A stretch of 64,000 nt of DNA from an uncultured delta proteobacterium (GCA_963724765.1 CAVRVY010000003.1:96001-160000); one strand, 5' to 3'. Numbered from the stretch's first letter, positions 26,544 to 48,741 are shown. The notes: a model not told the origin generated them from the sequence alone. Numbers and translations are program-made.

Positions 26544-28097
26544 TCACCATCCTCCTGGCCCCCATCGTCGGCTCTTGATCAGTCTGCCAAGGCCGCCGTA
26601 TTCCCCACGCGGGCCATCGACATCCTGTTCGTCCCGGGACGACGGCCGACGTCGGTCCGACCGTACCGGTGTGTACGAGAACTCGCGGCGATTTGCCGCA
26701 AGGAAGGTGAACGCGCCACACGCCGCGTCGACCTGATCGTCGTGCGCATATTCTCGTTCGTCGGGACTGAACTGCTCGCACTCATCGAGGAACGCCTCGT
26801 TCCACGCGCCGCGCAGGATTTTGACGTTGCTCGCCTCCGCGGCCGCACGAAACGCCTGCGAGCGCTCGAACTTCGAGCCCCTGACCGGGTCGGCTTTAAT
26901 CGGATAGCCGAGCAGTACACCCCGGCGCATTGAGTCAATCCAAAGGGCGCTCCCGCTTCCAGGCTCCTGCTGCAGGACTATCGGAATGGTACGGGTGTCC
27001 TGACCAGCGATGTTGGCGATAAAGGTCTCGACCTCGTGCGGCGTCGCCTGAGCCCGCGCCACGTGCAGAATGTAGCCCATCCCATTACGGGCAATGCCGT
27101 ATTTGACGCCGACGGTAAAATCGCTGGTTTTCTTCTTCTGATAGGCTGTGTCCCAGTACCGAACTAGTGTCAGCTCCGCCGGGGCGTGATCGATGACCTC
27201 GAACCACTCACGCCGGAGCACGCCACGCGAAGAACGCGCCTCCCAGTCGCCTTTGAGGATGCGGGCGCGGGTTACGGGGTCCAGGTTAAGGAGAGACTTC
27301 TCGTAGTCTTCGCGATTGATATAGGGATTCTCGCTGAGCCGGGCGGGCACGAATATACGGTCGCCGGCAGGAGCTCTTAGGCGTTCAACGAATCTCCTTT
27401 TGACCCAATCATGACCCACGTTCCCGGGATTCGAAGCCGCACGCATGCGCAGTGGAATATGTGCGGCTTCTACGTGCTCAGTTTTCTTGCGCACGACGCG
27501 AAAGCGCTGACGTTCGAGCTCTATGCACTCGGAGTAATCTTTCTTACGCTGCTGGTGAACCCTATCGCGGTGACCTCGGGATAGCATTTCAATCTTACAA
27601 GCCGGACATGCAGGAGCGCGCAAACGCGCGAATAGATCGAGATAAACCTTCTCCGAGAATTGGGTTAGTTCGTCGACGCCGATAAAATGAAATTCAGCTG
27701 AAGCGTAGCGATCGATGTCACGTGATCCCGCCAAATAGCCGAAGGTGAGCGTCGCGCCGCTTGCGAACTGCCACTGGTTCTTGGACTCATTCCAGTGCAC
27801 GTCCTTACGTCCGCGGAGCCAGCCATGCGCTCGATCGAGCAGTGCATTAGGCAGGGTCAGATCGGCAACGTGCCGTCGAATGATAAGCGCGTGGTAGCCG
27901 GGTATGTCGGCGTATTGGAGCGCAGACATCAACAAAGCATCAGATTTGCCACCACCTCCGGCACCACCATAGAAGGCTTCGAGGCAGTCCAACAGCAGGA
28001 ACGCGGCCTGATGCGACGTTGGCACATGCGGTATAAATGTATTTAAGCGCGCCTCAAACGGATCGAGTTCGAGCGCAGGATTGCAACTATCCTTCAT
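26544..28097 (-). CDS. Phage terminase large subunit (Terminase_6-like)
   Basis: YGGAGGGGKS Walker A, IGVDELTQF Walker B, ASNPG, RYWDTA, HDDQVDA nuclease motif. Confidence 0.92.
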   Translation of the reverse strand: MKDSCNPALELDPFEARLNTFIPHVPTSHQAAFLLLDCLEAFYGGAGGGGKSDALLMSALQYADIPGYHALIIRRHVADLTLPNALLDRAHGWLRGRKDVHWNESKNQWQFASGATLTFGYLAGSRDIDRYASAEFHFIGVDELTQFSEKVYLDLFARLRAPACPACKIEMLSRGHRDRVHQQRKKDYSECIELERQRFRVVRKKTEHVEAAHIPLRMRAASNPGNVGHDWVKRRFVERLRAPAGDRIFVPARLSENPYINREDYEKSLLNLDPVTRARILKGDWEARSSRGVLRREWFEVIDHAPAELTLVRYWDTAYQKKKTSDFTVGVKYGIARNGMGYILHVARAQATPHEVETFIANIAGQDTRTIPIVLQQEPGSGSALWIDSMRRGVLLGYPIKADPVRGSKFERSQAFRAAAEASNVKILRGAWNEAFLDECEQFSPDEREYAHDDQVDAACGAFTFLAANRREFSYTPVRSDRRRPSSRDEQDVDGPRGEYGGLGRLIKSRRWGPGGW

Positions 28098-28162
28098 TAC
28101 GGTTTTTCGCTCTCTTCAGCCATCTGGCTTTTCGTTCGCTCCATTTATGTAAAGGTGGATCA

Positions 28163-28639
28163 TCAATCTTTCTTATTCGGTGGCGTATCGGAGTCTGATT
28201 CGTCGCTGCCTGCGGCGTCAGGAGTGAGGTAGCCAGCCCGCTGCAGAATTGTCGCGATCTCGAATTTGCGCTGATGCTTTTCCTCCGCCGACGGCGGCGG
28301 CGGAAGTGGTGAACGTTCGGCTACGGCTGAGCGCGAAGCTTGGTGTTCTTCGATTCTCGGAATCTGATGCGCCAGCAACAACTGCATGGCGCGATGGTCA
28401 CCCTGCGCCGCCTTGTTAACCAGCTGTTTAAGGGTTGCTTCCAGCTTGGTTAATGATCTCCGGACGCCGTTCTCCGAGACGATGACACGCTCCCGAAGGG
28501 CCTCGTCCAAGAGCGTCGATGCGTTTCGCGAGCCGCGTGGGCGACCTTTGATGTTTCCAGAGTGGCCCTTCTTGAATTGCGTATGTCGCGGCGGCTTGCC
28601 GTAGCCTATGTCGTAATCTCTGCCTTCTCTTGCTCGCAT
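28163..28639 (-). CDS. DUF5681 protein (terminase small subunit-like)
   Basis: IGYGKPPRHTQFKKGHSGNIKGRPRG, KQLVNKAAQGD; directly upstream of TerL. Confidence 0.85.
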   Translation of the reverse strand: MRAREGRDYDIGYGKPPRHTQFKKGHSGNIKGRPRGSRNASTLLDEALRERVIVSENGVRRSLTKLEATLKQLVNKAAQGDHRAMQLLLAHQIPRIEEHQASRSAVAERSPLPPPPSAEEKHQRKFEIATILQRAGYLTPDAAGSDESDSDTPPNKKD

Positions 28640-30006
28640 CCCTTTTCCTCCATCTCGGCTTGGACTTCGTTGAATGATCGCTCGGACGAGACATGACGGG
28701 CGTTATCGCGAGTAAACGCCTGCCATCGACGGATGATGGTGTCGACGTAAAGAGGATCTATTTCGAGTCCGTAACAGCGGCGCCCGGTGCGCTCTGCTGC
28801 GATGATTGTCGTGCCGCTGCCGAGAAATCCATCGAGCACGACATCCCGTCGTGAAGTGCAGTCTATGATCGCGTCTGCAACCAAGGCGACGGGTTTCACT
28901 GTTGGATGGAGCGCGAGCAGCCGGCCCTCATCCCCTGAACGCGAGAATGAATTCACCCCGGGATAATTCCAGACATTGCTCCGGTTGCGGCCATACTGCC
29001 CTAGCTGAACATTGTTCCGATGAGATCCGCGGCCGTGTTTGAATACGAATACCAACTCATGTCGGCTGCGATACAGCGATCCCATGCCTGCGTTATCTTT
29101 TGACCAGACGCAGAGGTTCTTTAGCTCCGTATAGACTTCGCGGCCAGCCGCCAACAGCTCAGCCATGTGCCTCCAGTCCATACATATGAAATGGAGCGCG
29201 CCCTCGACGCTATGCCGGGCGTGCAGTGAACAGGTTGTGGTGAGAAATGTCCTGAACTCGGCTTCGCTCATCTCACCAGAAGCCATCGCGAAATCGCGAT
29301 GTCGGACGGAGCCGAGACCGCTAACATTCCCATCGATTCGGACATTGTATGGTGGGTCGGTAAACACCATCTCTGCCTGCTCGGTCTGCATCAGCGCCGC
29401 ATAAGCGATTGGGTAGCGTGCATCCCCGCAATACACCCGATGCTCGCCCAACTGCCAAAGATCACCGGTACGCGTCACGGCCGGACCCAACGGGAGCGCC
29501 GACAGGTCATCGGCGTCATCCTTGTTCTCGTGCGTGGAGGAAGTTAGACCCTCGATTCGCATATCGATTTCGCCCATGTCGAAACCGATTGTCTCGAGGT
29601 CGAAATCGAGGTTCTGTACCGACAATTCCTTTAGTTGCTCAGCTAGCAATCGGTCATCCCAAACCGAGTTTTCCGTGAGTCGATTGTCGGCAATCATGAA
29701 TGCCCGCGCTTGAGCCTCGCTCAGATGGTTGAGGCAAATGGTGGGCACTTCGGTCCGGCCAAGCAGCTGGCAAGCCACGATACGGCCGTGGCCTGCGATA
29801 ACCTTTCCTTTTGCATCCACCAGCACCGGCACGTTGAAGCCGAAGGTCTCGATGCTGCGCGCGATCTGGCGGATCTGCCTGGGGCTATGCGCGCGCGGGT
29901 TCTGGGGATCGAGCTTGAGCTCGGAAATCGGACGATAGGCTACCTGAACCCGCAGGCCGGGCTTATCGAGCCCTCTCGTGAAATGTCGAGCAGCTGATTT
30001 TGTCAT
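28606..30006 (-). CDS. ParB-N domain + N6/N4 DNA methyltransferase
   Basis: NPRAHS...IAGHGR...IADNRL (ParB); TDPPY, HPTVKP, DGFLGSGTT; start inferred from the paralog's leader. Confidence 0.93.
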   Translation of the reverse strand: MTKSAARHFTRGLDKPGLRVQVAYRPISELKLDPQNPRAHSPRQIRQIARSIETFGFNVPVLVDAKGKVIAGHGRIVACQLLGRTEVPTICLNHLSEAQARAFMIADNRLTENSVWDDRLLAEQLKELSVQNLDFDLETIGFDMGEIDMRIEGLTSSTHENKDDADDLSALPLGPAVTRTGDLWQLGEHRVYCGDARYPIAYAALMQTEQAEMVFTDPPYNVRIDGNVSGLGSVRHRDFAMASGEMSEAEFRTFLTTTCSLHARHSVEGALHFICMDWRHMAELLAAGREVYTELKNLCVWSKDNAGMGSLYRSRHELVFVFKHGRGSHRNNVQLGQYGRNRSNVWNYPGVNSFSRSGDEGRLLALHPTVKPVALVADAIIDCTSRRDVVLDGFLGSGTTIIAAERTGRRCYGLEIDPLYVDTIIRRWQAFTRDNARHVSSERSFNEVQAEMEEKGCEQEKAEITT

Positions 30007-30135
30007 AAGCAGTTTCATAGCTCCCAAAATCTCGGTCGAGAGAAGTAATTGCTCGAGTCGTACGTGCTCCGGTACGTGTTCCAATACATTATCGATTTGA
30101 CGCTAGGTTCTATAATTCTCTACAATGATTTGATT

Positions 30136-31014
30136 ATGACAACACTCGAACGATGGGACTGGGTCAATCTCGGCGATAACGAAGGACGTGTGGACCGCCC
30201 GTCAGCGGGGCTTGCTTGGTCCACCCCTTCAGCCGCCGAGCTTGACGGCGAGTGGTTGCTTTTTCTCTATCGGATGCGCGTTCTTCGGCGTGGCTTACGT
30301 GCGTTTCAGGTTCGCACGGTGAAGGCGAGCGCTGGGCTGCTCACCGAATTCATCCAGCTTGAAGAGGCGCCTGCGGAGCGTATTCTCGCTTATGCTCACC
30401 GGCACGGTCCGTTTGGCTTCTGCCAGCATGGCGACCCCAGCCACCGTGTTCTTTCCGAGGGCTGCCCTGCGGCGGTCGCCACGACTGGCGCCGGCCAAGT
30501 CGCCGTCCGTGAAGCTCTCCAGTGGTGGCGCAACCTCGCGGGTCACGCCCGCGCGCTGCTCAACGCAGCGGCTCAACTGTTCAAGGGCCGAGTCGATGAC
30601 ATAACTCTCGTGCGGCTCAATCCTGGACTGCTTCTTAGGCCGATGCGGGTGCTCAGGGCTGCGCGGCGCGACCCGGCGCCCTTCGTCGCCTATGGTATGG
30701 AACTCTGGCTGCGCTTCTTTCAGGTGCGGCCGCGCGCCACCTACAATCCGCGGCGTAAGCGGTTCGAGATGAGAATTAGCGGTTCGTCGGCGCTGGCGGG
30801 CGCGCTGGCACTGCAAATCATGCTCGCGCTGACGCGCTCAGCCGGCATTGCGGTATGCTCGGGCTGCGGTAGGGTATTCCCGCCTTCCCGGCGACCCAAC
30901 CCCAATAGGAACACCTACTGCGACGCCTGTGGAATCAGAGCCGCCTGGCGCGAAGCGCAGGCTCGCCGACGTGAGAGAGAAAGCAATAAGTCGCAAGGCC
31001 GAAGGAATGCATAG
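30136..31014 (+). CDS. Hypothetical protein with C-terminal CGNR-like Zn finger
   Basis: CSGCGRVF...YCDACGIRAAWREAQARRR; close paralog at 44429-45301 fixes the start MTTLERWDW. Confidence 0.85.
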   Translation: MTTLERWDWVNLGDNEGRVDRPSAGLAWSTPSAAELDGEWLLFLYRMRVLRRGLRAFQVRTVKASAGLLTEFIQLEEAPAERILAYAHRHGPFGFCQHGDPSHRVLSEGCPAAVATTGAGQVAVREALQWWRNLAGHARALLNAAAQLFKGRVDDITLVRLNPGLLLRPMRVLRAARRDPAPFVAYGMELWLRFFQVRPRATYNPRRKRFEMRISGSSALAGALALQIMLALTRSAGIAVCSGCGRVFPPSRRPNPNRNTYCDACGIRAAWREAQARRRERESNKSQGRRNA

Positions 31015-31178
31015 ACATGCGGCGCCGATCTCGCACGCCTAGATCGTCGATTGGCAGAACGGACAGCTGACAAACCGCGAATCGTCGTGGCGAGGTATCG
31101 ATAATCATTTTCGAGACAACACTTCCGCGTCCCGCTCGCTAGCTCATCTTGGTTGCGGCAGGGCTCCCAAAGGCTCGC

Positions 31179-31361
31179 TCCCTGATCCGAAGAGGATCAG
31201 GGAATCTGAATTCCCTGATCCACGATCGAAATTCCCTGTTCCGATCTCTAGGGAATTCTCCAGAAAAGCTTAATGCCCACGCGAGGTTTTCACGCCGCTG
31301 GACGCCGAAATAGCCCTGAAAAGACGAAATTCCCTGTATTTACCTTGTTGATCAGGGAATT
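31179..31361. repeat. Array of (AAT)TCCCTG/CAGGGA(ATT) boxes, copy 1
   Basis: Boxes at about 31179, 31198, 31209, 31230, 31249, 31328 and 31353 in direct and inverted orientation. Confidence 0.9.
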
Positions 31362-31368
31362 GCTCGAT

Positions 31369-31410
31369 GGAGACTGGTTCGCATCAGACTGCATCATCCG
31401 CCACACAGTC
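31369..31410. other. Putative att core resembling a tRNA 3' end, copy 1
   Basis: ggagactGGTTCGcatcagactgcatcaTCCGCCAcacagtc, about 230 bp past the recombinase stop; inverted homolog at 43749-43788. Confidence 0.6.
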
Positions 31411-31638
31411 TGGCATGCTTCCCTACATTATGGAGAAGCGATGAAATCGGCGCGTGGGGCGCGATTCACGCGCGGCCGTGGACGCGGAGAATGCCAACGG
31501 CAGGGGCTGAGCGTGAAAATCGCTTAGAATTCTCTGTTCGCGATTTTGGCATGTCCATCTGCGAACCGGCCGACATTTTGCGGAGAAGCGTTCTCGGGAA
31601 GAACGCTGCCTGACGCAAGCAACTACGCCCGCGTGAGT

Positions 31639-33327
31639 CTATCGGGATTCCAGAGCTTGCTGCTGCGCACTCCAGAGCGGAGGGAGTTCGATTCTCTGGG
31701 TCATCGCTAGAGTGCTGAGGTCTGCGGGCTGCCGGCCTTCGACGATCGCCTCGACAATCCTGGGCGCCAGGAACGCCAGCCGCATCACGCGCCGCACGTG
31801 ACGGGCCGTAAGATGTTCTCGCCTGGCTATCTCGCCGATCGACCGCGCCCGACCCGCCAACAGATCGTTGGACCATCGATACGCACGGGCGGTCGCGTCG
31901 AGCAGCGGTAGATCGATGCGTGCTAAGGATGCGGCGTCACCATCAATGATCAGCCGCATCTCAACGCCGCGCCGCTTCATCCGCATCGGGACGAATCGAC
32001 TTAGCGCGGGTTCGTTCGGAGTCGCGACATCACGCCCTTCATCGGACGAGATCGGCAATTTGATAGAAATCTGGATGCCGTCCTTCTTGAGTCCGACACG
32101 TTCGATCAGCCGGGTCAGTGCTGATGCAGCTTCCGCTTCGGATCGCAGACTTTGAATCCAAGCTTCGGCGACCTTGAAGATGGAAGGCAATCGGTTCGCA
32201 TCTATGTTGAGCTCCTCGATCGCTCCGGCGATTGCCGCTCGATCACTGAGAATCTGCTGAGTCGCGGCGCGAACGGCTCGTTCAAGCTCCGGTGCAGATA
32301 CGCGCCACCCGCGCCGCTCATCTTGTACCGACCCTCTGACCAATCCACGCGAGACGTAGTAACGATAGTGGCGCGTCCCCTTTACCGCGCCCTGCACATA
32401 CAGGGGCTCGCCGTTCTCGTCGAACAGTTTACCCGCGAGCGGGCTGGGCGGCGCCTTGGTTGGGCGTTCGCGATGCGTGGCGGCTTGATCGCGCAAGCGC
32501 AGTTGGACCTTCTCCCAGAGCTCGCGGCTCACTATTGGCTGGTGCTGCCCTGGATGGCGTTCCTTCTTGTGGCGGATCTCGCCGAGGTAGATCGGGTTCG
32601 ACAGCAGCTCATAAAGAGCTCCGCGCGAGAATTGCCGACCTCCAGATCGCACGCCGTTTTTCGACACCCGGACTTTGGAGACAATCTCGCGGCGCTTTAA
32701 ATCGTTTCTCAGGAGCCTGACGGAACCGAGTTCGAGATATCGCTCGTAGATGTGTTTCACTGTCACGGCTTCGGGCCGATTGACTACCAGCCGGCGATCG
32801 CGGACGTCGTAGCCCAGTGGCGATACCCCGCCCATCCACATTCCCTTGCGCTTGGAGGCGGCGATCTTGTCCCGGATCCGCTCGCCCGTTACTTCCCGCT
32901 CGAATTGCGCGAACGAAAGCAGGACATTCAGCGTGAGTCGGCCCATCGAAGTGGTCGTGTTGAATTGCTGCGTGACTGCAACAAACGAAACGCCGCGCGC
33001 GTCGAACACCTCGACCATCTTGGCGAAGTCGGCAAGCGAGCGCGTGAGGCGATCGACCTTGTAAACGACCACCACGTCGACGAGTCTCCGCCTGATATCT
33101 TCCAACAGGTGTTGAAGGGCGGGACGTTCCATCGTCCCGCCCGAAAGGCCGCCATCATCGTAGGCGGTCTTGATGAGCCGCCAGCCCTCGCCCGTCTGGC
33201 TCTTGATGAATGCCTCACACGCCTCGCGCTGCGCATGCAGGGAGTTGAAGTCCTGCTCCAGCCCTTCTTCGGAAGACTTCCGCGTGTAGACCGCGCAGCG
33301 TCGTGTTCGCGACCTAGCGTGTTCCAT
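31639..33327 (-). CDS. Large serine recombinase
   Basis: CAVYTRKSS catalytic motif, VYKVDRLTRS, FAQFEREVTGERIRDK, PLGYD, LSNPIYLG. Confidence 0.95.
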   Translation of the reverse strand: MEHARSRTRRCAVYTRKSSEEGLEQDFNSLHAQREACEAFIKSQTGEGWRLIKTAYDDGGLSGGTMERPALQHLLEDIRRRLVDVVVVYKVDRLTRSLADFAKMVEVFDARGVSFVAVTQQFNTTTSMGRLTLNVLLSFAQFEREVTGERIRDKIAASKRKGMWMGGVSPLGYDVRDRRLVVNRPEAVTVKHIYERYLELGSVRLLRNDLKRREIVSKVRVSKNGVRSGGRQFSRGALYELLSNPIYLGEIRHKKERHPGQHQPIVSRELWEKVQLRLRDQAATHRERPTKAPPSPLAGKLFDENGEPLYVQGAVKGTRHYRYYVSRGLVRGSVQDERRGWRVSAPELERAVRAATQQILSDRAAIAGAIEELNIDANRLPSIFKVAEAWIQSLRSEAEAASALTRLIERVGLKKDGIQISIKLPISSDEGRDVATPNEPALSRFVPMRMKRRGVEMRLIIDGDAASLARIDLPLLDATARAYRWSNDLLAGRARSIGEIARREHLTARHVRRVMRLAFLAPRIVEAIVEGRQPADLSTLAMTQRIELPPLWSAQQQALESR

Positions 33328-33808
33328 CGCGGCGTTCCTCTTGTGATCGCTTGAGGCCGAAGAACAACGGCCCCGACCATCGAGTCCCGGTGATCTCGCG
33401 CGCGACTCCCGAGAGCGAACGATAACGCTTGCTCCGGAAGCAAAATCCTTTTTCGAGAACGCTTACTTGACGGCTGATACCGCGCCATTCACGCACCAGC
33501 ACCGCGCCGGGCCGCACGATGCGAGACGGTTCCGCGGCCAAAGACGACTCGTTAGCGCCATCATGGGCCAACTCGGCCAGCACGCGTCGGGTTGAGGGCT
33601 TAAGACCGCCAAAAGCCTTTTCCTGGAGGCGATATGCGATCGCGCGCGTCAGGAACGATCGGCTGATATCGCGCGACGGCGCCTTTCCGAACATAGCTTT
33701 CCAGCGCTCGCGGAGTTCGTCGATGCCTAGCTTCGACAGGCTGGCAATTTCCGACGCGAGGGTTTCACGGTCCCGAACCTGTCGCTTCATAGTCGTTTCT
33801 CTCGACAC
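33314..33808 (-). CDS. DUF2924 protein
   Basis: AIAYRLQEKAFGGL, GAVLVREWRG, SLSGVAREITGTRWSGPLFFGL; overlaps the recombinase start. Confidence 0.9.
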   Translation of the reverse strand: MSRETTMKRQVRDRETLASEIASLSKLGIDELRERWKAMFGKAPSRDISRSFLTRAIAYRLQEKAFGGLKPSTRRVLAELAHDGANESSLAAEPSRIVRPGAVLVREWRGISRQVSVLEKGFCFRSKRYRSLSGVAREITGTRWSGPLFFGLKRSQEERRDGTR

Positions 33809-34156
33809 TTCTCGGCTTTCAACTCGGCTTCAAAACTCATATGTGCTCCTCCTTGAGCCGCGCTATTTGCTGCCCCAATGACACACACATTGCTCGATTC
33901 GCGACATACAGCCAGTCGTGCGCGGCGCGCGACTTGGGCATTTACGCTCTCATTAGACCTCGTTTTCTCTGCTGCGATTTCGCTGGTTTCATTCGCCTTC
34001 CAATCGCCTCGATCAGACTGTCGATTCGGGCCAATAGCCGGCTTCTCCCTTTTCTGCGCGAATGACGTTGGAAAAACCGGGGAAACCACTCGCTTCACGC
34101 GCCGACCAGAGCAAACATCCCGACGAGCCCTTACGGCTCAAGGAGATTTAGAGGGA

Positions 34157-34441
34157 ATGGAACACGCGAAACAGGCGAACGGAAGCGGGCATGAACTATC
34201 GATCGGACATTCTCCATCTTCGGCCGGGAAGAAAGCTGTCCGGAAAAAGGCTGAGTCCCCACGGCCGCTCCGGAAGGAGGCGGGCAGCAAGTCGAAATCA
34301 GGGAAACTGGGTTGCCGCTATTGCGGGAGCGATGACCTGGCTCCGAGTTTCATCAAGCGGCGGGATCGGCGATGCCGCAAGTGTTTCAGTAAACGCTATG
34401 GGTCGGCGGCCCGGGCGAGGAAGGCGAAGGTCAAGAAATAG
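34157..34441 (+). CDS. Small basic protein with CxxC...CxxC
   Basis: aggag/gaggg RBS; CRYCGSDDLAPSFIKRRDRRCRKC; followed by a terminator. Confidence 0.7.
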   Translation: MEHAKQANGSGHELSIGHSPSSAGKKAVRKKAESPRPLRKEAGSKSKSGKLGCRYCGSDDLAPSFIKRRDRRCRKCFSKRYGSAARARKAKVKK

Positions 34442-34464
34442 TTCGAACATGACTTCGGATGAGT

Positions 34465-34498
34465 GGCCGGGCTCGAAAGGGCTCGGCCCCTTTCGTTT
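34465..34498 (+). terminator. Intrinsic terminator
   Basis: ggccgggctc-gaaa-gggctcggcc hairpin followed by tttcgttt. Confidence 0.65.
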
Positions 34499-34642
34499 AA
34501 GGCTTGGTCTAGGAGCGAGGCTCTACGAAACTGGTAACACTTCGCCCTTCAAGTTGTCCAAATAGGCTGCGGCCTTTGGGAGTCGGTTGCACGCTATTCG
34601 ATAGCGCCCAGAATCTCATGCACTCAGGGAGGTTGCCTCCGT

Positions 34643-36357
34643 ATGTATCGCGACGTGGTGCAATGGTCGAAGATCCGACATCGGATTCTGGTGAAAGGCG
34701 ACTCGCGTCGCCAGGTTGCCCGCGAGACTGGCATCAGCACGAATACCATCGACAAGATGCTTGCCCATCGCCACCCGCTCCCATATGGGCCAAGAAGCCA
34801 TAGATATCCAAGGCTAGGGGCACACGTGGCCTCGATCCGCCGGATGCTCCAGAAGAACGCTGGTCTCCCGCCCTCGGCCCGGCTCTCAGTCAAGGACATT
34901 TACGAACGGGTTCGTGATGAGGAAGGCTTCCTCGGTGGATACAGCACGGTGAGCGACTATGTTCGTCCGCCCGCGAGCGATGAAGACTGCATCTGGAAAC
35001 AACCTTACGATTTGCTGATATTGCTCGAGAAGAAGCGTGTGCTCGACTTTTTAGTCTTGCTTTCTTGCGCCGATCCACCCGTCATCTCGCCGGCTCGAAA
35101 AAAGCAGTTCTTTCATGATGTCGGTCGGGTGATCGGCATCAACCCGAAGCCCAACAACAGAGCAGCGCTCCGAAGCGCCGCGTTCGAGTGGATGCGCTCC
35201 GTCCTTCAGAAGGAAATCAGCGACGACGCCCTGCGTCGCGAGATAGGTGACCTGCCCGACCTCAACCGCTTGCTACGCCGCCTGTATGAAGGACGCCTAT
35301 CCGATCGCAACCGGGTCAATGGTCGTTCTGGCGAGCCGACGCGGTCTGAGCAGCCGAATGATCTGCAGTTTTCTCGATATCGACAATAAATCCTGTCGAA
35401 AATATCTTCAGAGCTTCGAGCGCGGGGATTATACAGAGTTATTCGCGCTTCAAATCAAGCCTAACCGGAAGTTCGACGATGAGGTGATCAAGAAGGCGAT
35501 CTTCGGCCTCATGCACGAGCCCCCGTCCAATCACGGCATCAATCGCACGACTTGGATCATGGCCGACCTGTCTCGGGTACTGAGAGAAACAGGCAGACCC
35601 GCCTGCCCCGACGTGATCCGGAAGATCACGAAAGCAGCGGGATACCGCTGGCGCAAGGCTCGAGTCGTACTAACATCGAGCGACCCCGAATACTCCAAGA
35701 AACTCGATCGCATCCGCTCGATCCTCTCCGGGCTTTGTCCGGACGAAGCGTTCTTCTCGATCGACGAATTCGGTCCCTTCGCCGTGAAGATGAAGCCTGG
35801 CCGCACACTCACTGCCCCCGGCGAGCAGCGCATTGTGCCGCAGTGGCAGAAATCCCGCGGCTCTCTGATCCTGACGGCGGCGCTTGAGCTGTCCGGCAAC
35901 CAAGTCACCCACTTCTACAGCGCGAACAAAAATACAACCGAGATGATCCGAATGATGGAGCTTCTGGTCGAGCAATATCGCGACCGGCGGAAGGTGTATC
36001 TCTCATGGGATGCAGCCTCCTGGCACATCTCGAAGCGATTGTTTGAGCATGTCGAAAGCCTTAATGCGGTTGCCGCTAGGGGCGCTGCACCGATCATCGA
36101 GACCGTTCCATTGCCGTCAGGTGCTCAGTTCCTGAATGATTGAATCCGTCTTCAGCGGGATGGCTCGCGCGATCATCCACAACAGTGACTACCAGACACT
36201 CGATGACGCGAAGACAGCGATCAATCGATACTTTGAAGAACGGAACGCGCACTTTAGGCAGCATCCCAGAAGAGCCGGAAAGAAGATCTGGGGCAAGGAG
36301 CGCGCACCCGCCACTTTTTCCGAAGCAAACAATTGCAAGGATTCACGTTACCGGTAA
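34643..36357 (+). pseudogene. IS630-like transposase with IstA-like N-terminal HTH, two frameshifts
   Basis: SRRQVARETGISTNTIDKML; FFSIDEFGP, LSWDAASWH, FLN/IESVF; breaks near 35315 and 36138. Confidence 0.75.
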
Positions 36358-36998
36358 CGGTGGCTACTTGCCTCGGTCATCGATCAAAATGCATTCTCAA
36401 ACGGGCGCCGGCTATGGTCGTCAGCTCGACGATTCTTGATGGCTTACTGACCGCTGCATAAGTCGCCTGTCAGTTCGAATTTGACTCGCTCCGCCATGCA
36501 GTCTCAGGTTTGAGGCATTCTCCTGGGATGACCGCAAAAAAGCGCGCGTGTGGGGCCGATGCGCGCGCCTCACCGGCACCAGAGAGACCTCACATGTCGA
36601 GTTATGCCGCGTGACTTCGATTTTCTCTCCGTGGGCGATCGGCTATGTCTTGCTCATTGAACAAGTCCGGGCGATGCTCGATAACGATTTTCTCCAGGCT
36701 CAGGCCGCCCCGTCGCTTGGACCGCTGAGCGCATTGTCGCGGTACAGCGGCAACGGGCGCACGAGCAGGCGCTGGCGTCGGTCAAGCCTAGGAGGTACCG
36801 CCGGCACGGCCGACGCTGAAGGACAGGTGGTGCTCGGACTTGGTGCACCGACGCAATCGCAACCAACACCTTGTCCCAAGGGCCTCACTGGCCTCCGTTT
36901 TCCCGCGCCTAGCCGAGCCGGCGCGACGGTTATGGCCATGCTCGCTGGCAAGGCCGTCGAAGTAGGCGGCGCACCGGCACAACTTTGTCCCGGCTGAA

Positions 36999-40799: not shown

Positions 40800-40921
40800 C
40801 CCGGCAGCGCTAGGGGTTGCGTTGCGGCTCGAGCGGCAGGCTCGCCCGTCCCGGTCAGCGCGGACGAGTCGCTATGCACCGTGCCCATCGGTTAGACGCG
40901 GCGCCTGGCGACTCATTGGCA

Positions 40922-41203: not shown

Positions 41204-41350
41204 TTTTAGATCCCTCTTCGCGGTAGGTATCTTCGACGAACGTGGCGATTAAAATAATCTTTCTCGGAACGGAAGGAAAAAGAAAAGTGCAGACCCTCTC
41301 GGATCCGCCCTCATCGGCCCGGGAAGCCCTTCGCGGGGGACAGGACAGGC

Positions 41351-41508
41351 TCGACACTACTTTTGCCCAAGGTGCGGTGTGGCGGTTTTGCGTAATCCCC
41401 GCACTTCACCCGATACTAAATTTTCGGTCAATGTCCGCTGTCTTGCGGGGGTTGACGTGTCGAAGCTAAAGGTCACGCAATTCGATGGTCGCAACAAGCT
41501 TAAGGTTT
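41351..41508 (+). pseudogene. GFA/Mss4-like protein C-terminal fragment
   Basis: RHYFCPRCGV...SVNVRCLAGVD...FDGRN. Confidence 0.6.
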
Positions 41509-41689
41509 AAGGAAAGATCGTCGCAGCTCTAAACTCAAACCGTAACGTAGTGATGATGCTTCCCCCCTGGCCAACGATCGCCAATCGGAGATGGCCGCTT
41601 CGCGGATTCAAGTCCAGATCTACTCCCGTAGCCGATGAGCAGGGACAAGTGCCTGTGAGCACTTTGTCAGCATCATCCAAGGAGACGCC

Positions 41690-41794
41690 GAGAAAGCTGT
41701 CTTCGCATCTTTTGCTGCCATATTTCACAATTGCCCGAATTGCCGCATTGAGTCCCGGACAATCTCCACCGCCAGTCAGTACGCCTATCTTCAT
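41690..41794 (-). pseudogene. pfkA: 6-phosphofructokinase N-terminal fragment
   Basis: [23 protein letters not shown], after which homology is lost. Confidence 0.75.
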
Positions 41795-42607
41795 AGCCCC
41801 TCCTTCTTTGATGCAGATTGTTGCCTGTTACGTAGGAAAAATACACGGGGTTTCGCGATTTGAAGCCGGCGATAGCCTAAAGAACGCACCGAAAAGGCCG
41901 GAGTCATAAGGGCTCCACGCTTGCCGGCTTGACCAGCACCATCGCATTCAGGCAATACGGCCGGCCACAACGGATAGAGCGGGACCCCAGACTGCTGCGC
42001 GACTGGCGCGGCGCCCAACATCAAGTGATCGTCCGTGAGCACGGCGTCGAGTTTCAGGGGGAGACGACGCTCCAACAAAAAAATTAAAGCGGAAGCGCCA
42101 TGAAAGGTTCCTATTGCTCGCTTTCCTTGGTCGATGGGCGATTGGAGGGCGAATGGGGGCCGGCGAAATCGCAGAAGAAAACTAGATTCAGTAATAGCGG
42201 GAGTTGGCCGAAGGGCACCGGCTCGGTTCCTCGACAGAGAGAATCGAGCATTAATTACCTGCTGCTGGCCGAAACTGAGATTCTCCGGTGGGCGCCCCCT
42301 CTCAGACGCGCTGGACGCGCGCGGAGAAAGAGCAGATCGACGCTCGACCACGACATCGACCAGCCTGCCGCGCTCCCGAGAAGGGTTTTACTTATCGGGA
42401 GTATCTTCGCCGACGTCCGATCCCGGCAACTTGCCAGCTTTGGGCAAACTTGTCACCCGATGCCGAATCTCACCAGTCACTACCATTTGTAGCAGGACTC
42501 GGTCCGTGTTGGGGGGCAACGCACGCCTGAACTCAATCTTGTTCCGAATGCTGAAGGGTTTGGACTCAGCTAATGCCCGGATAGCGACGGTGGTAGTAAC
42601 CGTCGAG

Positions 42608-43579: not shown

Positions 43580-43705
43580 AATGAAAGACTCCTGGTCGAA
43601 GGCATGGTGGCTGAGGCCGTTAAGCAGGGCAAGCTCTGGCTCACAACAGGACAAGCCAGCATTCTTGCCGAAGAAATTCCGGCGGGACTTTCACTGACGA
43701 CGCGC
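43580..43705 (+). pseudogene. Possible collapsed C-terminal remnant of a serine recombinase
   Basis: AEAVKQGKLW..TGQASI..IPAGLSLT loosely echoes the C-term of 31639-33327; same position relative to the att-like core. Confidence 0.3.
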
Positions 43706-43748
43706 GCGCGGACTTCGAGCAATTCTCCGAGAAGTACAAAAACTGATG

Positions 43749-43788
43749 GACTATGGTGGATGACACAGTCTGCTGCGAACCATTCTCC
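43749..43788. other. Putative att core, copy 2 (inverted relative to copy 1)
   Basis: gactatggtggatgacacagtctgctgcgaaccattctcc vs the reverse complement of copy 1, gactgtgtggcggatgatgcagtctgatgcgaaccagtctcc. Confidence 0.6.
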
Positions 43789-43795
43789 GCGGGCA

Positions 43796-43991
43796 AATTC
43801 CCTGATCAGCAGGAAAAAACAGGGAATTCCCTCGATTTTAGCCCGAACCTGAGCCTCCGGGCAGGGAAAAGGCCTTGATCCACTGCAGGTTTTTGAACGA
43901 ATTCCCTACTCCAGCGAACAGGGAATTTTCAAAGCCTCACAGGGAATTAAATGGGTGCATCAGGGAATTTCTTGGAGCGGTTTAGGGAAAA
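43796..43991. repeat. Array of AATTCCCT/CAGGGAATT boxes, copy 2
   Basis: Boxes at 43796, 43820, 43862, 43900, 43919, 43940, 43961 and 43983; the last four are spaced 21, 21 and 22 bp. Confidence 0.9.
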
Positions 43992-44428
43992 CCGTATTCA
44001 AGCTTCTTCGTGGGCGAAGAGTACAGCCCCGAGGGTCTAGACTCCTCCAGCATCACGGGAGGTCCCGCTTCCTGGCTGCCGAAATCTTAACTTACAATTC
44101 GAATCCGATAGGTCACCTGGAAGCATGACGCGAGCGGCATCTACCAGGCAGGAAACCGCGCGCATAGGAAACAGGTTCCCATCTACGGCGTAGAGCCGCC
44201 GAGAGAAGCAATGGCAACACTGGAAGGTCCATGATGCCGAGAAGATTCTTGCTATTCTTCCCATTCCTAATCGGGTGTCGAGCCTTGCACCCCGCACCGT
44301 TTAGGCGGGGTGGATCTTGCAAACGTCCTCGCACCGCCACCGTCTCTCGATTCCGCCAATTTCCCAACCCAAGCCGGTCGATGGTCTGCTAGGTGCCCGT
44401 TGTCCCAAACGATCGATAACGGCAGGAT

Positions 44429-45301
44429 CTATGCTGTGTTTGTCCGCCTCGCTGTTAACTTCCGCGCGCGTCGACGTGCCTGTGCTTCCCGCCAAGCGGC
44501 CCTGATACCACAGGCGTTGCAATAGGCATTTCTGTTCGAATTGGGCCGCCGAGAGGGTGCGAAGAGCTTTCCACAACTGGAGCAGACCGCAATGCCGGCC
44601 GAGCGCGTCACCGCGAGCATGATCTGCATTGCCAGCGCGCCCGGTAAGGGCGGCGCACCGCCGATCCGGATTTCAAAGCGCTTGCGCCGCGGATTGTAAG
44701 AGACCCGCGGGCGCACCTGAAAAAAACGCAGCCACAGTTCCATTCCATAGGCGACGAAGGACGCGGGGTCGCGCCGCGCAGCCCTCAGGCGCGGCGCCGA
44801 AAACAAAAGCTGCGGGTTGAGCCGGGCCAGGGTTAGGTCATCGACTCGGCCCTTGGAGAGCTGGGCCGCCGTGTTGAGCAGCGCGCGGGCGTGGCCTGCA
44901 AGATTGCGCCACCACTGAAGCGCCTCACGCACAGCGGTTTGACCGGCGCCGGTGGTGCAAACGGCCGCAGCGCAGCCCTCGGGACGAAGGCGGTGGCTGG
45001 GATCGCCATGCTCGCAGAAACCGAACCGGCCGTACCGGCGAGCGTAATCGAGAATGCGCTCGGCCGGGGCCTCGTCGAGCTTGACGAATTCGGTAAGCAC
45101 GCCGGCGGCCGCCTCGACTTTGCGAAATTGGAGCACGCGTCTGCCGCGTCTCAAAGTACGTATCGGATAGCGAAAAAGCAGCCATTGACCGTCGAGCTCG
45201 ACCTCAGGGGCAGCGGACCAATTAGGCACCGCTGCTGGGCGATCCACCCGTCCTTCGTCGTCGCCGAGAGCCACCCAGTCCCACCACTCTAGTTTTGTCA
45301 T
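44429..45301 (-). CDS. Hypothetical protein with CGNR-like Zn finger, paralog of 30136-31014
   Basis: Long identical stretches (AVREALQWWRNLAGHARALLN, FVAYGMELWLRFFQVRPR); CSSCG...YCNACG. Confidence 0.87.
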   Translation of the reverse strand: MTKLEWWDWVALGDDEGRVDRPAAVPNWSAAPEVELDGQWLLFRYPIRTLRRGRRVLQFRKVEAAAGVLTEFVKLDEAPAERILDYARRYGRFGFCEHGDPSHRLRPEGCAAAVCTTGAGQTAVREALQWWRNLAGHARALLNTAAQLSKGRVDDLTLARLNPQLLFSAPRLRAARRDPASFVAYGMELWLRFFQVRPRVSYNPRRKRFEIRIGGAPPLPGALAMQIMLAVTRSAGIAVCSSCGKLFAPSRRPNSNRNAYCNACGIRAAWREAQARRRARKLTARRTNTA

Positions 45302-45415
45302 AGTCGAATCATCTTAAAAAATTTCACCGACGAACGCCAAGTCAATAGGATCGCTAAAAGTGCAGCGCGGGCGACCACTTCGTCCGACGAGATTTGGGAG
45401 GGTTGAAACCCACTC

Positions 45416-46792
45416 ATGCAGAAACAAGGCGACAGGCGACTTTCCACAAGCTCAGTAGACCAGGCCCGAGGCCGGGTCCAGGTAACTTATCGTCGGCTTT
45501 CCGAGCTCAGGCTCGATCCCAACAACCCGCGGACACATAGCCAAAAGCAGATCCGCCAAATCGCCCACAGTATCCAAACCTTCGGCTTCAACGTCCCGAT
45601 TTTGGTCGATTCCAAGGGCAAAGTGATCGCCGGTCACGGCCGCGTCATGGCCTGTCAGCAGTTAGGCTGGACCGAGGTTCCAACCATCACTCTCGAGCAT
45701 TTGAGCGAAGCGCAAGCTAAGGCATTCATGATTGCCGATAACCGACTGACCGAGAACTCGACTTGGGACGACCGCCTTCTGGCCGAGCAACTGAAGGAGC
45801 TCTCGGCAATCGAGCTCAACTTCAATCTCGAGGCCATCGGCTTCGAGACCGCTGAGATCGATTTGCGCATCGAGAGTCTGAGGGCGGATAGCGACCAACG
45901 AGAGGATCCCGCGGACCTCCTTACAGCCATACCGGCCGAGCCGCCAGTGAGTCGACCAGGCGATCTCCTTCTGCTAGGCAGGCATCGGGTGTACTGCGGC
46001 AGCGCGCTCGAGCAAGCCTCCTACACCGCCCTGATGAGGGAGGAACAGGGCGCGATGGTGTTCACCGACCCACCGTATAACGTCGCCATCAAGGGCAACG
46101 TTAGCGGTCTCGGCGCCATTCGCCACCGCGACTTCGCGATGGCCTCAGGCGAGATGGACGAGGCTCAATACGCCGCTTTCCTCACCCACGCCTGCTCGCT
46201 GCTTGCCCTCCACAGCGCAGATGGCGCGCTGCACTTCATCTTTATGGATTGGCGGCACATCGGTGAGCTACTTGCGGCGGGTCGGAGCGTGTACGCGGAC
46301 CTGAAGGGCATGTGTGTCTGGGTCAAAAACCATACCGGTATGGGAGCGTTCTATCGCAGCCGCCACGAGCTGGTCTTCGTCTTCAAGCACGGCCGTGGGT
46401 CCCACCGCAACAACGTCCTACTAGGCAAATATGGCCGCGATCGCACCAACGTATGGAGTTACCCGAGCCCTCGCACGCCCAGCGAAGAAGGCAACCTGCT
46501 TGCGTTGCATCCCACGGTGAAGCCGGTGCGGCTGGTCGCCGATGCCATCCTGGACTGCACCGCGCGCGGCGACATCGTGGTCGATGCCTTCCTCGGCAGC
46601 GGCACCACCGTCATCGCCGCCGAACGTGTGGGCCGGCACTGCTACGGACTCGAGCTCGACCCAATCTACGTCGACACGATCGTGAGGCGCTGGCAAGCCT
46701 ATACGGGCGAGGCCGCCCGCGATGCATCAAGCGGGAGATCATTCAACGAGTTGGAAGCCGAGCGAACGGAGGAGGTGCGCAATGTCCGCTGA
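45416..46792 (+). CDS. ParB-N domain + N6/N4 DNA methyltransferase
   Basis: IAGHGR, IADNRL, TDPPY, HPTVKP, DAFLGSGTT; paralog of 28606-30006. Confidence 0.93.
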   Translation: MQKQGDRRLSTSSVDQARGRVQVTYRRLSELRLDPNNPRTHSQKQIRQIAHSIQTFGFNVPILVDSKGKVIAGHGRVMACQQLGWTEVPTITLEHLSEAQAKAFMIADNRLTENSTWDDRLLAEQLKELSAIELNFNLEAIGFETAEIDLRIESLRADSDQREDPADLLTAIPAEPPVSRPGDLLLLGRHRVYCGSALEQASYTALMREEQGAMVFTDPPYNVAIKGNVSGLGAIRHRDFAMASGEMDEAQYAAFLTHACSLLALHSADGALHFIFMDWRHIGELLAAGRSVYADLKGMCVWVKNHTGMGAFYRSRHELVFVFKHGRGSHRNNVLLGKYGRDRTNVWSYPSPRTPSEEGNLLALHPTVKPVRLVADAILDCTARGDIVVDAFLGSGTTVIAAERVGRHCYGLELDPIYVDTIVRRWQAYTGEAARDASSGRSFNELEAERTEEVRNVR

Positions 46793-47129
46793 AATGGGCT
46801 ACGGGAAGCCGCCGCGGGCGACTCGGTTCCGCAAAGGTCAATCGGGGAACCCCAGGGGCCGGCCGCGCGGCTCAAGAAGTTTCGCGAGCCTGATGGAGGA
46901 GGCGCTCGCCGAGCCGGTAATAATAAATGAGAACGGGCGACGGAAGAAAGCAACAAAGCTGCAAGCGATCGTTAAACAGCTGGTGAATAAAGCTGCTCAA
47001 GGTGATCATCGCTCGATTCAACTTTTGATGGCATTCACTGAGCGACAACAACTGTTAGGCAAAGACGGAAAGCCCATAACAATAGTTGAGCTGCTTTCCG
47101 CGATAGGTCCAATTTCTGATGAAGACTGA
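46782..47129 (+). CDS. DUF5681 protein (terminase small subunit-like)
   Basis: GYGKPPRATRFRKGQSGNPRGRPRG, KQLVNKAAQGD. Confidence 0.85.
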   Translation: MSAEMGYGKPPRATRFRKGQSGNPRGRPRGSRSFASLMEEALAEPVIINENGRRKKATKLQAIVKQLVNKAAQGDHRSIQLLMAFTERQQLLGKDGKPITIVELLSAIGPISDED

Positions 47130-48741
47130 AAAGCACGAACTCTCCCCTCAACAGAAGACGTTGGCACGTAGGGTGGTCACCGACCCCGTGCTGTTCGGCA
47201 CCAATGTCCTCGGCGCTCAGCTCTGGGAACAACAGATTGAAATACTGCATTCAATCCAGAACTGTCGACGAACCGTCATAAGATCCTGCCATGGCGTGGG
47301 CAAGACTTACGCCTTGGCCGTGGCCGCACTTTGGTGGTTAGCGCGCTACCCTGACGGAATTGTTCTGACTACCTCATCGACCTTCCGCCAGGTCAAAACC
47401 CAGTTGTGGTCAGAGATTCATCGCCTCATTGCGCAGGCGAGGGTTCACTATCCCGAACTCAAAAGTACGGAGCTCAGGCTGCGTGACGACAGCAACTTCG
47501 CTTTGGGTTTCTCGACCGACCGATCTGCAAACTTTCAGGGGTATCATGGCAAGCATGTCCTGATCATCGCGGACGAGGCGCCGGGGATCGAGTCCGGCGT
47601 TTGGGACGCGATTGCGGGTACCATGGCTGGCGGCAAAGTGCATATCGTGATGGCCGGAAATCCCACTCTACCATCGGGTGCCTTCTATGACGCGTTCACG
47701 CGAGAACGGGAACTATGGAATTGTATTACTATCGACGCATTCGACTCGCCGAACTTAAAAGACATCGGGCTCGACGAGCTTCTGCAGATGGATCCAGCGG
47801 AGGGCGGACTCTTGGACCAGAATCCGATGCCTTACCTGGTGACCAAACGCTGGGTTTTCGATCAGTATAGGGCATGGTGGCATGGCGACGAACGCAGCTC
47901 GCCCAACTGGGTCTCGCGCGTGCGCGGCCAATTCCCCGACCAGGCACAGAACGCTCTCGTGAAACTGCGCTGGTTGGAGCGCGCCAAGGAGCGCGTTCTT
48001 CGCACTCCGGTGCAAGATAAGGCGGCCAGCCTGGTAGCCGGAGTGGACGTTGGCGGCGGAGAAGCGGAAACGGTCGTTTATGTCTGCGAGTCCAAGCCGC
48101 ACGACTTCAAGATCATCGCCATGGGGGCGTGGCGCTGCGAGGACACGCGCGGCGACGTGGTCCGGTTCTTGGCCTCGTACCGCGGACGCCTTCGTTCCGT
48201 TCGAGTTGATGCGATCGGGATGGGTCACAACTTTGGCCTGCATCTCAGGGACGAGAGATTTCCGGTCGAGCTGGTCAACGTCGGCATGGCATGTGAGAGT
48301 CGTCCGGAATGGCCCGAGAACGATCCTGCCGGGCGATTCGTGAATCTAAAGGCACAGTACTATCAGGAGCTGGCCGATGCGTTCGAGCGCAACGAGGTAC
48401 AGGGTTTGAGAGACGATGTGACTATAGACCAACTGACCGGCATCTTGTACGAAGTTGATTCTCACGGAAGAATTAAGATCGAAAGCAAGGAAAGCGCCCG
48501 GGCGCGCGGAATTCCCTCGCCCGATCGCGCCGAGGCGCTCATGCTCGCGCTTTGCAAACCGCCGCAGAAATACGAATGGTACTCGATCCGCGATTTTCCA
48601 CGTTTGAGGTCGGGTTCTGCCCAGAGGCTGGGTGATCAATGTGGAGGATTAGCATATATGGGCTTCAGAGAGGTCCCCCATGACCCTGCGGAGGACATAC
48701 CGCTGAGAGGGAGATGGCCGCGCGGCTGGGAGGTATTCTGA
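47119..48741 (+). CDS. Phage terminase large subunit (different subfamily from 26544-28097)
   Basis: RSCHGVGKT Walker A, IIADEAPG Walker B, AGNP, AGVDVG, SPDRAEAL nuclease motif. Confidence 0.92.
   Translation: MKTEKHELSPQQKTLARRVVTDPVLFGTNVLGAQLWEQQIEILHSIQNCRRTVIRSCHGVGKTYALAVAALWWLARYPDGIVLTTSSTFRQVKTQLWSEIHRLIAQARVHYPELKSTELRLRDDSNFALGFSTDRSANFQGYHGKHVLIIADEAPGIESGVWDAIAGTMAGGKVHIVMAGNPTLPSGAFYDAFTRERELWNCITIDAFDSPNLKDIGLDELLQMDPAEGGLLDQNPMPYLVTKRWVFDQYRAWWHGDERSSPNWVSRVRGQFPDQAQNALVKLRWLERAKERVLRTPVQDKAASLVAGVDVGGGEAETVVYVCESKPHDFKIIAMGAWRCEDTRGDVVRFLASYRGRLRSVRVDAIGMGHNFGLHLRDERFPVELVNVGMACESRPEWPENDPAGRFVNLKAQYYQELADAFERNEVQGLRDDVTIDQLTGILYEVDSHGRIKIESKESARARGIPSPDRAEALMLALCKPPQKYEWYSIRDFPRLRSGSAQRLGDQCGGLAYMGFREVPHDPAEDIPLRGRWPRGWEVF

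Follow-up and report, generated by a model that had tools for sequence, protein, structure and literature searches.

The 64,000-nt stretch of DNA analyzed here, referred to as the window, comes from an uncultured delta proteobacterium (GCA_963724765.1 CAVRVY010000003.1:96001-160000). Its positions 26544 to 48741 hold two mirror-image copies, W1 and the inverted W2, of a cassette coding for a DNA methyltransferase, a small protein resembling a small terminase subunit (TerS) and a large terminase subunit (TerL). Copy 1 is bounded by a conserved recombination-type site (about 31366 to 31410, plus strand), in which an inverted repeat, CAGACTG..CAGTCTG, is placed around ..TCCGCCA. Next to the site lies array 1 (31198 to 31361), composed of CAGGGAATT repeats in both orientations, and then Zn-finger regulator-like gene 1 (30049 to 31014, plus strand; likely start, 30136). 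The remaining genes of this copy are on the minus strand and encode ParB-N6/N4 DNA methyltransferase 1 (28606 to 30084; likely start, 30006; N6_N4_Mtase, 1.3e-28; ParB_N, 2e-4; phrog_498, 3e-124), TerS-like protein 1 (28163 to 28639; PF18932, 2.9e-22), with a DUF5681 N-domain and a TerL1-linked tail, and TerL1 (26544 to 28097; 517 amino acids [aa], intact; Pfam Terminase_6C, 1.6e-10, and Terminase_6N; phrog_979, 1.6e-98). TerL1 had approximately 40% identity to phage TerLs across 88% of its own length. Copy 2 consists of site 2 (about 43790 to 43746, minus strand), array 2 (43796 to 43969), also of CAGGGAATT repeats, Zn-finger regulator-like gene 2 (44429 to 45301, minus strand; 290 aa) and, on the plus strand, the genes for methyltransferase 2 (45416 to 46792; N6_N4_Mtase, 5.5e-28; ParB_N, 4.8e-7), TerS-like protein 2 (46722 to 47129; likely start, 46785; PF18932, 2.9e-24), with a DUF5681 N-domain and a TerL2-linked tail, and TerL2 (47119 to 48741; 540 aa, intact; phrog_2, 1.2e-30).

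Open reading frames (ORFs) of the window were compared with Pfam (75 ORFs) and PHROGs (21 ORFs). The mirrored order of core, array, Zn-finger gene, methyltransferase, DUF5681 protein and TerL, described in a first-pass annotation of the sequence, was confirmed by gene calls and family scans. The statement in that annotation that portal, capsid, tail, lysis and replicase genes are missing from the window was also upheld, as none of these families was detected by Pfam among the 75 ORFs and no structural-gene match was obtained with PHROGs for the 21 ORFs. The Zn-finger, methyltransferase and DUF5681 genes had further been described as paralogous, and this was correct, with identities of 75% for the Zn-finger proteins, 68% for the methyltransferases and 61% for the DUF5681 proteins, in the last case across the first 90 residues only. 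The large subunits are not paralogues: TerL1 and TerL2 are unrelated (best BLASTP E value, 0.12) and matched different TerL families. At the DNA level the copies were 71% identical across 2,622 nt and 83% identical across a 77-nt core. The CAGGGAATT motif, with at most one mismatch, was present 26 times in the window compared to an expected 11.9 ± 3.9, a number reached by 0 of 100 shuffles, and the nine exact copies were all inside the two arrays. Promoter and terminator scans gave counts that were not above those of shuffles.

The recurrence of the cassette was examined by a search with TerL2 of 401 genomes of the class. Matches at an E value of ≤1e-30 were obtained in 27 genomes, with the window's own genome counted, as well as an unpublished genome that contributed no locus and nothing beyond this tally; 23 of these were among 94 other genomes of the same family. 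Twenty loci were fetched, and a further locus (L019) was found via the Zn-finger protein. A TerL2-type set, defined by a TerL at least 59% identical to TerL2, comprised 17 loci from 11 genomes with W2 included. A methyltransferase gene or its pieces was present upstream of TerL in 16 of the 17 loci, a small protein was encoded between methyltransferase and TerL in 16 of 17, the trio as such recurred in 16 of 17, and the TerL frame was fully open in 13. Pfam scans were performed on ORFs of at least 100 aa within 8 kb downstream of TerL (140 ORFs, plus those of L019 and the window). Portal, capsid, protease and tail families were detected in none of the 17 loci, two of which had less than 3 kb of downstream sequence. 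The downstream regions were variable and contained insertion sequence (IS) elements, cI-like repressors and a group II intron reverse transcriptase, besides ordinary metabolic genes. Defense- or accessory-like cargo was often found there, including TIR, a type I restriction subunit, Mrr, a restriction endonuclease-like protein and a 5-hydroxymethyldeoxyuridine (5-hmdU) kinase with MazG. Upstream, 39 ORFs included no structural genes and did include housekeeping genes near the cassette edge (MreB, RNase II and M50 peptidase).

Genes of the TerL1 type were rarer and were detected in 5 of the 401 genomes. The six loci of this type (W1 and L044 to L048) were likewise devoid of structural genes after TerL. 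The trio of methyltransferase, small protein and TerL was also present in L044 and L045, with the intact trio of L044 having 70 to 74% identity to copy 1; its small protein, which also precedes a TerL1-type gene, was 70% identical to TerS-like protein 1 over the full length. Phage_portal and prohead protease genes followed TerL in two of five distant TerL2 relatives of 35 to 45% identity (L039 and L040; 43 to 45%). In IMG/VR, the cassette genes were found together in all seven contigs detected with TerL2 or the methyltransferase, two of which (L051 and L054) end inside TerL or short of it. A serine recombinase (SerRec) was present in all seven and DUF2924 in six; no head genes were detected within these contigs, which are short.

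The first-pass annotation had regarded the shared end point at TerL as the sign of a defined unit and not of random prophage decay, and had stated that a continuation of the closest homologous loci into portal or capsid genes, or relaxed selection on TerL, would point to decay. Neither was found. Continuation was confined to the two distant relatives, and the TerL genes were under purifying selection. The 15 full-length cassette TerL2 proteins (at least 460 aa) formed one clade with 100/100 support and a branch length of 0.96, and this branch splits them from the group holding the two portal-linked genes. Pairwise ratios of nonsynonymous to synonymous substitution rates (dN/dS) within the clade were 0.07 to 0.23, and for the least saturated pair the dS was 0.30 and the ratio 0.225. 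No variation was seen in Walker A, Walker B or the three nuclease Asp motifs. As every member of the clade is without a portal neighbor, the simplest reading of these sequences is that the clade diverged while already capsid-less. Overall, we consider it very probable that the cassette is a real, recurrent and selected unit; it has the look of a functioning module, not of debris from a dead virus.

L049 (G000:C4:1243000-1262000) holds a third TerL2-like gene of the window's genome, with 37% identity and also without head genes, located between a primase/polymerase-like gene and genes for a 707-aa methyltransferase-like protein and a 980-aa hydrolase-like protein; it may be another kind of terminase-bearing island. 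Downstream of TerL in L033 (G213:C1), proteins with a 5-hmdU DNA kinase helical domain and with a MazG C-terminal domain are encoded along with a type I restriction R subunit, in a neighborhood of DNA hypermodification and restriction genes. In the IMG/VR contig L056, a protein with a Tle1-like hydrolase domain, of the type VI secretion system phospholipase type, is encoded between TerL and the DUF2924-SerRec pair (4587 to 5831, minus strand).

The small protein lies in the position of TerS before TerL, and its tail was found to follow the type of TerL. An alignment of these proteins (A2) contained two types of N-domain, a basic DUF5681 type and a type of 175 aa with a helix-turn-helix-like start. 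The tail GKDGxPxTxVxLLxxxGPIxDE was present in 13 of 13 small proteins linked to a cassette TerL2, whichever N-domain they had, and in 0 of 4 linked to other TerLs. Thus, the proteins of W2 and L024 combined a DUF5681 N-domain with the TerL2-type tail, and the TerL1-linked proteins of W1 and L044 had a different tail in common; the difference in tails explains why no more than the first 90 residues of the window's two DUF5681 proteins can be aligned. A complex was modeled from the N-terminal 300 residues of TerL2 and residues 60 to 135 of the small protein. The model had a score of 0.73 compared to 0.01 for the best control; 116 of 157 solved complexes attained this mark, as did 2 of 215 mismatched pairs. 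Three runs agreed in at least 65% of contacts, the partner pLDDT (predicted local distance difference test) was at least 53, and tail residues 111 to 131 were placed on the TerL2 N-domain. This model supports binding of the tail to the TerL2 N-domain. No TerS family model matched the small protein in family scans that included Pfam and PHROGs. Leptospira phage LE3 has a DUF5681-like gene directly before TerL, overlapping its start; the portal gene follows TerL, and a ParB-like gene lies upstream. The alignments and the model suggested a small terminase of modular build.

The arrays upstream of the methyltransferase gene varied with the other end of the small protein. Two array types, CAGGGAATT and GGTTGACA, were present in the cassette family. 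Arrays of CAGGGAAT (2 to 5 copies) were found in W1, W2, L024, L035 and L044, all five of which have the DUF5681 N-domain. Arrays of GGTTGAC (3 to 6 copies with a spacing of 14 to 18 bp) were found in L026, L028, L029, L030, L031, L032, L034, L036, L043 and L051, and the small protein was of the 175-aa type in 10 of these 10 loci. No locus had two or more copies of both motifs, and the available sequence of a further five loci with the DUF5681 type and six with the 175-aa type showed no array. The types of regulator and TerL varied independently of the array. As the array motif follows the N-domain of the small protein, the likeliest readers of the array are this N-domain or the covarying ParB-methylase. 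We propose that the array is bound by the N-domain and may have a pac-like role.

Different regulators were found at the position occupied by the Zn-finger gene. The Zn-finger protein itself is divergent from the methyltransferase in W1, W2, L019, L036 and L038. In L028, L030 and L043 its place is taken by a less closely related protein that has this C-terminal Zn ribbon too, and in L024, L035, L044 and L051 by a cI-like helix-turn-helix repressor; L031, L032 and L034 had no divergent regulator gene. The Zn-finger protein had no Pfam match above the cutoff and no PHROG or PADLOC family, and its matches were only weak Zn-ribbon ones among solved structures and unnamed clusters in a protein atlas. 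The structure model of protein 2 was of modest confidence (pLDDT, 61.6), and its only fold match, the DUF1470 protein 3h0n (E, 2.3e-3), is for this reason taken as a lead only. In the available part of its description, 3h0n is a putative transcription regulator with an ABATE domain and a treble-clef Zn finger for which DNA binding is likely (PMC2954205). Scans with the Zn-finger protein detected one close locus in genome contigs (L017, adjacent to an IS element and without a methylase) and no locus in viral contigs. Distant relatives in other islands were directly upstream of tyrosine integrases and opposite primase-like genes. A regulatory role was assigned to the Zn-finger protein with moderate confidence.

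The recombination-type site of approximately 45 bp was detected once per locus, at the upstream cassette edge, in 12 loci, and L026 and L051 were added by alignment. Its consensus was GAGAGCAGTTCGCA(G/T)CAGACTGCGTCATCCGCCA(N3)CAGTCTG, with the inverted repeat CAGACTG/CAGTCTG and a left arm that resembles the 3' end of tRNA-Ser. At copy 1 a 3.2-kb unit (31397 to 34608, minus strand), with its junction at 31397 to 31403, starts inside this site. The unit contains SerRec (31639 to 33327, minus strand), DUF2924 (33314 to 33808, minus strand; 8.3e-46) and orf187 (33878 to 34441, plus strand). SerRec has both the catalytic Resolvase domain (PF00239, 2.2e-38) and the Recombinase domain (PF07508, 5.7e-16) of a large serine recombinase. 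The unit was 99.4% identical to C2:55310-58522 (C1 to C4 being the contigs of the window's genome), where it meets, with its left end, a tRNA-Ser(CGA) gene at the 3' terminus ..TCCGCCA; in the window the left end meets ..CATCATCCGCCA of the cassette core. Both copies start within ..TCCGCCA, and the other end of the unit has no matching arm. In contigs from two studies, position 31397 was immediately preceded by tRNA-like letters (loose ends; runs X1 and X6). Since an almost identical copy lies at a tRNA-Ser 3' end, the copy 1 pair is a small, separately mobile unit and not the fixed part of the cassette that it had been taken for. The reading of the pair into the core, part of the first-pass annotation, was true of copy 1, with its recently arrived unit, but not of copy 2, which keeps short relics only: approximately 55 nt resembling the left end of the unit, next to site 2 (together 43700 to 43790), and a 45-nt relic of orf187 (42137 to 42181, minus strand) that is 82% identical to 33965 to 34008. 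A 186-aa ORF at 41791 to 42351 was compared with orf187, and the proteins are not homologous.

The window's genome contained approximately 10 full DUF2924-SerRec pairs in addition to fragments, and several copies had a tRNA-Ser gene or tRNA-like 3' fragment approximately 240 to 310 nt past the recombinase stop codon. Judged from these junctions, the unit is separately mobile and targets tRNA-Ser 3' ends and their look-alikes. Scans for tRNA and Rfam families detected nothing in the window, and the same was true of ARAGORN in 12 loci and Rfam in three loci; neither the tRNA-like core nor the tRNA-like fragments next to other recombinase copies can therefore be recognized as RNA genes. Beside four SerRec copies (G000 C1:665477+, C3:226597+, C4:1583469- and C4:1661667-) lie tRNA-like 3' fragments (..GGCAGTTCGAATTCA..TCCGCCA-like) that are nearly identical to one another, were not called by ARAGORN and seem to be part of another repeated sequence. 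In L035, a tRNA/tmRNA-like 3' end (..GGTTCAATTCCCCCCGCCTCCACCA; approximately 1990 to 2020) lies approximately 140 nt outside the site, with no ARAGORN or Rfam call. The SerRec unit and an adjoining IS630-like element (31397 to 36500) were detected at 95 to 99% identity in soil metagenome and rhizosphere RNA-library contigs (X6 and X15), of which the RNA-library contigs over the unit may be DNA carryover. From its presence in contigs of other studies, the small recombinase unit seems to be widespread. SerRec or DUF2924 was near the cassette in L024, L025, L031, L032, L043, L047 and L048, as well as in the IMG/VR contigs; several cassettes had no recombinase within the stretch fetched.

The function that best fits this combination of genes is that of a helper-dependent, satellite-like packaging module, a plausible reading to which we give somewhat less than an even chance. 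The small protein would act as the small terminase: the N-domain would recognize the array, which would serve as a pac-like site, and the C-terminal tail would recruit the matching TerL. When the regulator is relieved, the terminase would start packaging at the array, and the procapsids of a helper phage would be filled with the cassette and adjoining DNA, as in satellites or lateral transduction. The methylase could mark packaged DNA for protection in the next host, and serine-recombinase units landing on or beside the site could supply integration and rearrangement. A more specific version is offered tentatively, as a possibility only: a mobile "terminase-only hitcher" with its own TerS, TerL, pac-like array and protective methylase that would take only empty procapsids and tails from the helper. 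Swaps of TerL and the TerS tail would retune it to the helper portal, swaps of the TerS N-domain and array would retune the DNA packaged, and an array beside a serine-recombinase landing site could drive high-frequency transfer of neighboring cargo, defense genes included.

Comparison with known systems identified several partial likenesses. Satellites are described as using the TerL of the helper, except for phage-inducible chromosomal islands of the capsid-forming kind (cfPICIs), which also encode capsid, portal and connectors (available portions of bioRxiv 10.1101/2022.09.08.507074, PMC9618062 and PMC10085698). The cassettes, with their TerS-like and TerL genes, resemble cfPICIs, which are integrative elements with their own terS and terL and with TerL clades apart from phage TerL (bioRxiv 10.1101/2022.09.08.507074 and PMC10085698), but cfPICIs carry capsid, protease, portal and head-tail connectors and none of these was found in the cassettes. 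They also resemble PICIs, Staphylococcus aureus pathogenicity islands and other satellites that redirect packaging with their own TerS, as small, putatively integrative units in which a regulator is combined with a TerS-like protein and its candidate cis site, often with an integrase close by and with accessory or defense cargo alongside. PICIs, however, use the helper TerL and have a primase-replicase, according to the consulted part of PMC10085698, whereas the cassette brings a full TerL and a methylase. As regards the PICI core set of SatelliteFinder, as presented in that part of the source, the cassettes had no primase-replicase; as for the integrase, a large serine recombinase is beside many cassettes but belongs to the separate 3.2-kb unit at W1. 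Leptospira phage LE3 and Wolbachia WO have a ParB-like or ParB-methylase gene, a DUF5681-type protein and TerL in the same order, and WO-type prophages pair DUF2924 with a serine recombinase (PMC10299305, partial text), but in these phages portal and head genes follow TerL, which was never the case in the cassettes. As in lateral transduction (PMC12829572), a chromosomal pac site and a terminase could package neighboring genes, including defense genes; the known cases there are complete prophages or PICIs, whereas packaging in situ by the cassettes is a proposal. SerRec resembles the recombinases of serine recombinase islands (Ccr of the staphylococcal cassette chromosome SCCmec, and XisF types) in its Resolvase and Recombinase domains and in site-specific junctions at a defined core. 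It differs in that its unit always has DUF2924 as a partner and is directed to tRNA-Ser 3' ends or sequences like them, and its matches to the CcrB, XisF and CcrA models were weak and far below the cutoffs (133 bits versus 900 for CcrB). PADLOC and NCBIfam gave no system-level match for the cassette, and no description of it was found in the full-text literature searched, subscription journals and supplements being outside that search.

Several observations weigh against the packaging reading. The only portal family in the window's genome was Mu-like (C2:271874-273043 and C1:461664), and no resident helper is therefore evident. TerL was broken in 4 of the 17 TerL2-type loci (frameshifted, split or cut by an IS element) and three of the six TerL1-type loci (L045, L046 and L048) were broken as well; L047 had a shorter TerL (approximately 430 aa) and a different gene order. 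No replication gene (primase, helicase or Rep family) was detected in or beside the cassettes, so that a small element would need concatemers or initiation in situ for its packaging. IS elements and pseudogenes are abundant in the window. From locus to locus the recombinase had different positions and orientations with respect to the cassette, and for this reason no single fixed element map is claimed. A strict map of attL, recombinase, cargo, TerL, TerS, methyltransferase, array and attR, which was considered but not adopted, fits L031 and L056 and fails for L025, L050, L052 and L053 to L055, where positions or orientations are different. Furthermore, the site was whole in the cassettes and not split as simply predicted for the attL and attR of an integrated element. 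Contigs of four sequencing runs from three studies, in which uncovered stretches were not used as evidence, showed neither a circular junction nor an inversion involving the two sites, and no direct sign of excision, circles or particles; no trustworthy joint was found, and the listed contig joints, with sides of only 21 to 24 letters, were disregarded. The IMG/VR contigs are computational viral calls and no proof of encapsidation.

The main alternative is an anti-phage module, which we regard as unlikely but worth weighing. Here the terminase would compete with or preempt the packaging of an infecting phage, through portal docking or the cutting of concatemers, the methylase would mark self by the logic of restriction-modification, and transfer would not be the selected function. 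The conservation of TerL with an intact nuclease, the constant pairing of the methylase with TerL and the defense-type neighbors (TIR, Mrr and the type I restriction subunit) are all consistent with this, and known satellites are reported to interfere with helper packaging (bioRxiv 10.1101/2022.09.08.507074 and PMC9618062). However, models for TerL, for the small protein and for the Zn-finger protein are missing from PADLOC-DB 2.0, where the methylase matched generic type II or orphan methyltransferase models only. A cis array that follows the TerS-like N-domain and sits beside a recombination site fits self-packaging better than an attack on foreign DNA. The defense and packaging readings are compatible and not mutually exclusive.

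Less probable again, and in our view improbable, is that the cassettes are inert leftovers, namely the attP-proximal ends of temperate phages with ParB-methylase, DUF5681, TerL and serine recombinase genes in a Wolbachia WO-like layout, spread by IS activity and recombination. The same kinds of genes occur in real phages that continue to a portal (as far as the available text of PMC10299305 describes them), IS elements and pseudogenes crowd the region, and several cassette copies are broken. Nevertheless, a portal was found in 0 of 23 loci, although each copy ends at the TerL stop, and the capsid-less TerL2 proteins form one clade that diversified at a dN/dS of 0.07 to 0.23. Parts had been exchanged in matching combinations, the tail together with TerL and the array together with the N-domain, and the flanks differed between loci, with housekeeping genes right up to the site.

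It is very improbable that the cassettes are domesticated packaging genes resembling those of a gene transfer agent, with head and tail genes elsewhere in the genome: the conservation of TerL in loci without adjacent structural genes would agree with this, but HK97-type portal and capsid and SPP1- or lambda-type portal families (PF04860, PF05065, PF05133 and PF05136) had no match in the window's genome (completeness, 97%), the cassettes are multicopy and lie in different places in different genomes, as mobile elements do, and two unrelated TerL families fill the same slot. A gene transfer agent proper was not supported, the search of the window's genome with these families having found no head-tail structural cluster, and neither was a tailed-phage prophage, intact or simply decayed, as portal and head genes did not follow TerL and selection on TerL was not relaxed.

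If the packaging reading is true, the cassette would represent a third satellite strategy, in which only a complete terminase, a cis array and a methylase are kept, and this would lie outside the described classes. It would also provide a testable model in which packaging specificity (TerS N-domain and array) and motor docking (TerS tail and TerL) are exchangeable parts. Packaging in situ, if it occurs, could explain the mobility of adjacent defense and accessory genes in soil bacteria in which conjugative or viral vehicles are not apparent. Should the cassette prove to be a defense device, the use of a terminase as an immune effector would be new. On either reading, DUF5681 gains a likely role and DUF2924 would be placed as the constant partner gene of a large serine recombinase that targets tRNA-Ser; the literature found for DUF2924 by full-text search was all on Wolbachia.

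The rest of the window contained further repeated and fragmentary sequences. Just downstream of TerL1, a repeat of approximately 325 bp (25800 to 26124), with the look of a miniature inverted-repeat transposable element, had approximately 20 copies in the genome at 75 to 93% identity. An IS630-family element (21405 to 22563; DDE_3 transposase, 368 aa) had seven more copies of 99.9 to 100% identity distributed over all four contigs, and a second IS630-like copy (34643 to 36143) was frameshifted. A 1.4-kb segment (23588 to 24986) with two ORFs of 131 and 238 aa that could not be assigned was 98% identical to C4:1667295-1668692, where the two ORFs sit directly upstream of the methyltransferase in the L031 cassette. 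Between the cassettes, a 95-aa ORF (41507 to 41794, minus strand) is a gene fragment that matches only the first 35 phosphofructokinase positions. Two long ORFs, of 1,027 aa (6081 to 9164, minus strand) and 629 aa (10426 to 12315, plus strand), had no Pfam match. Starting approximately 80 nt past TerL2, the region 48822 to 51030 contains a split SbmA/BacA-type ABC transporter (49300 to 50493 and 50387 to 51124) and was 96% identical to C4:1580589-1582780, which adjoins another SerRec-DUF2924-orf187 unit.

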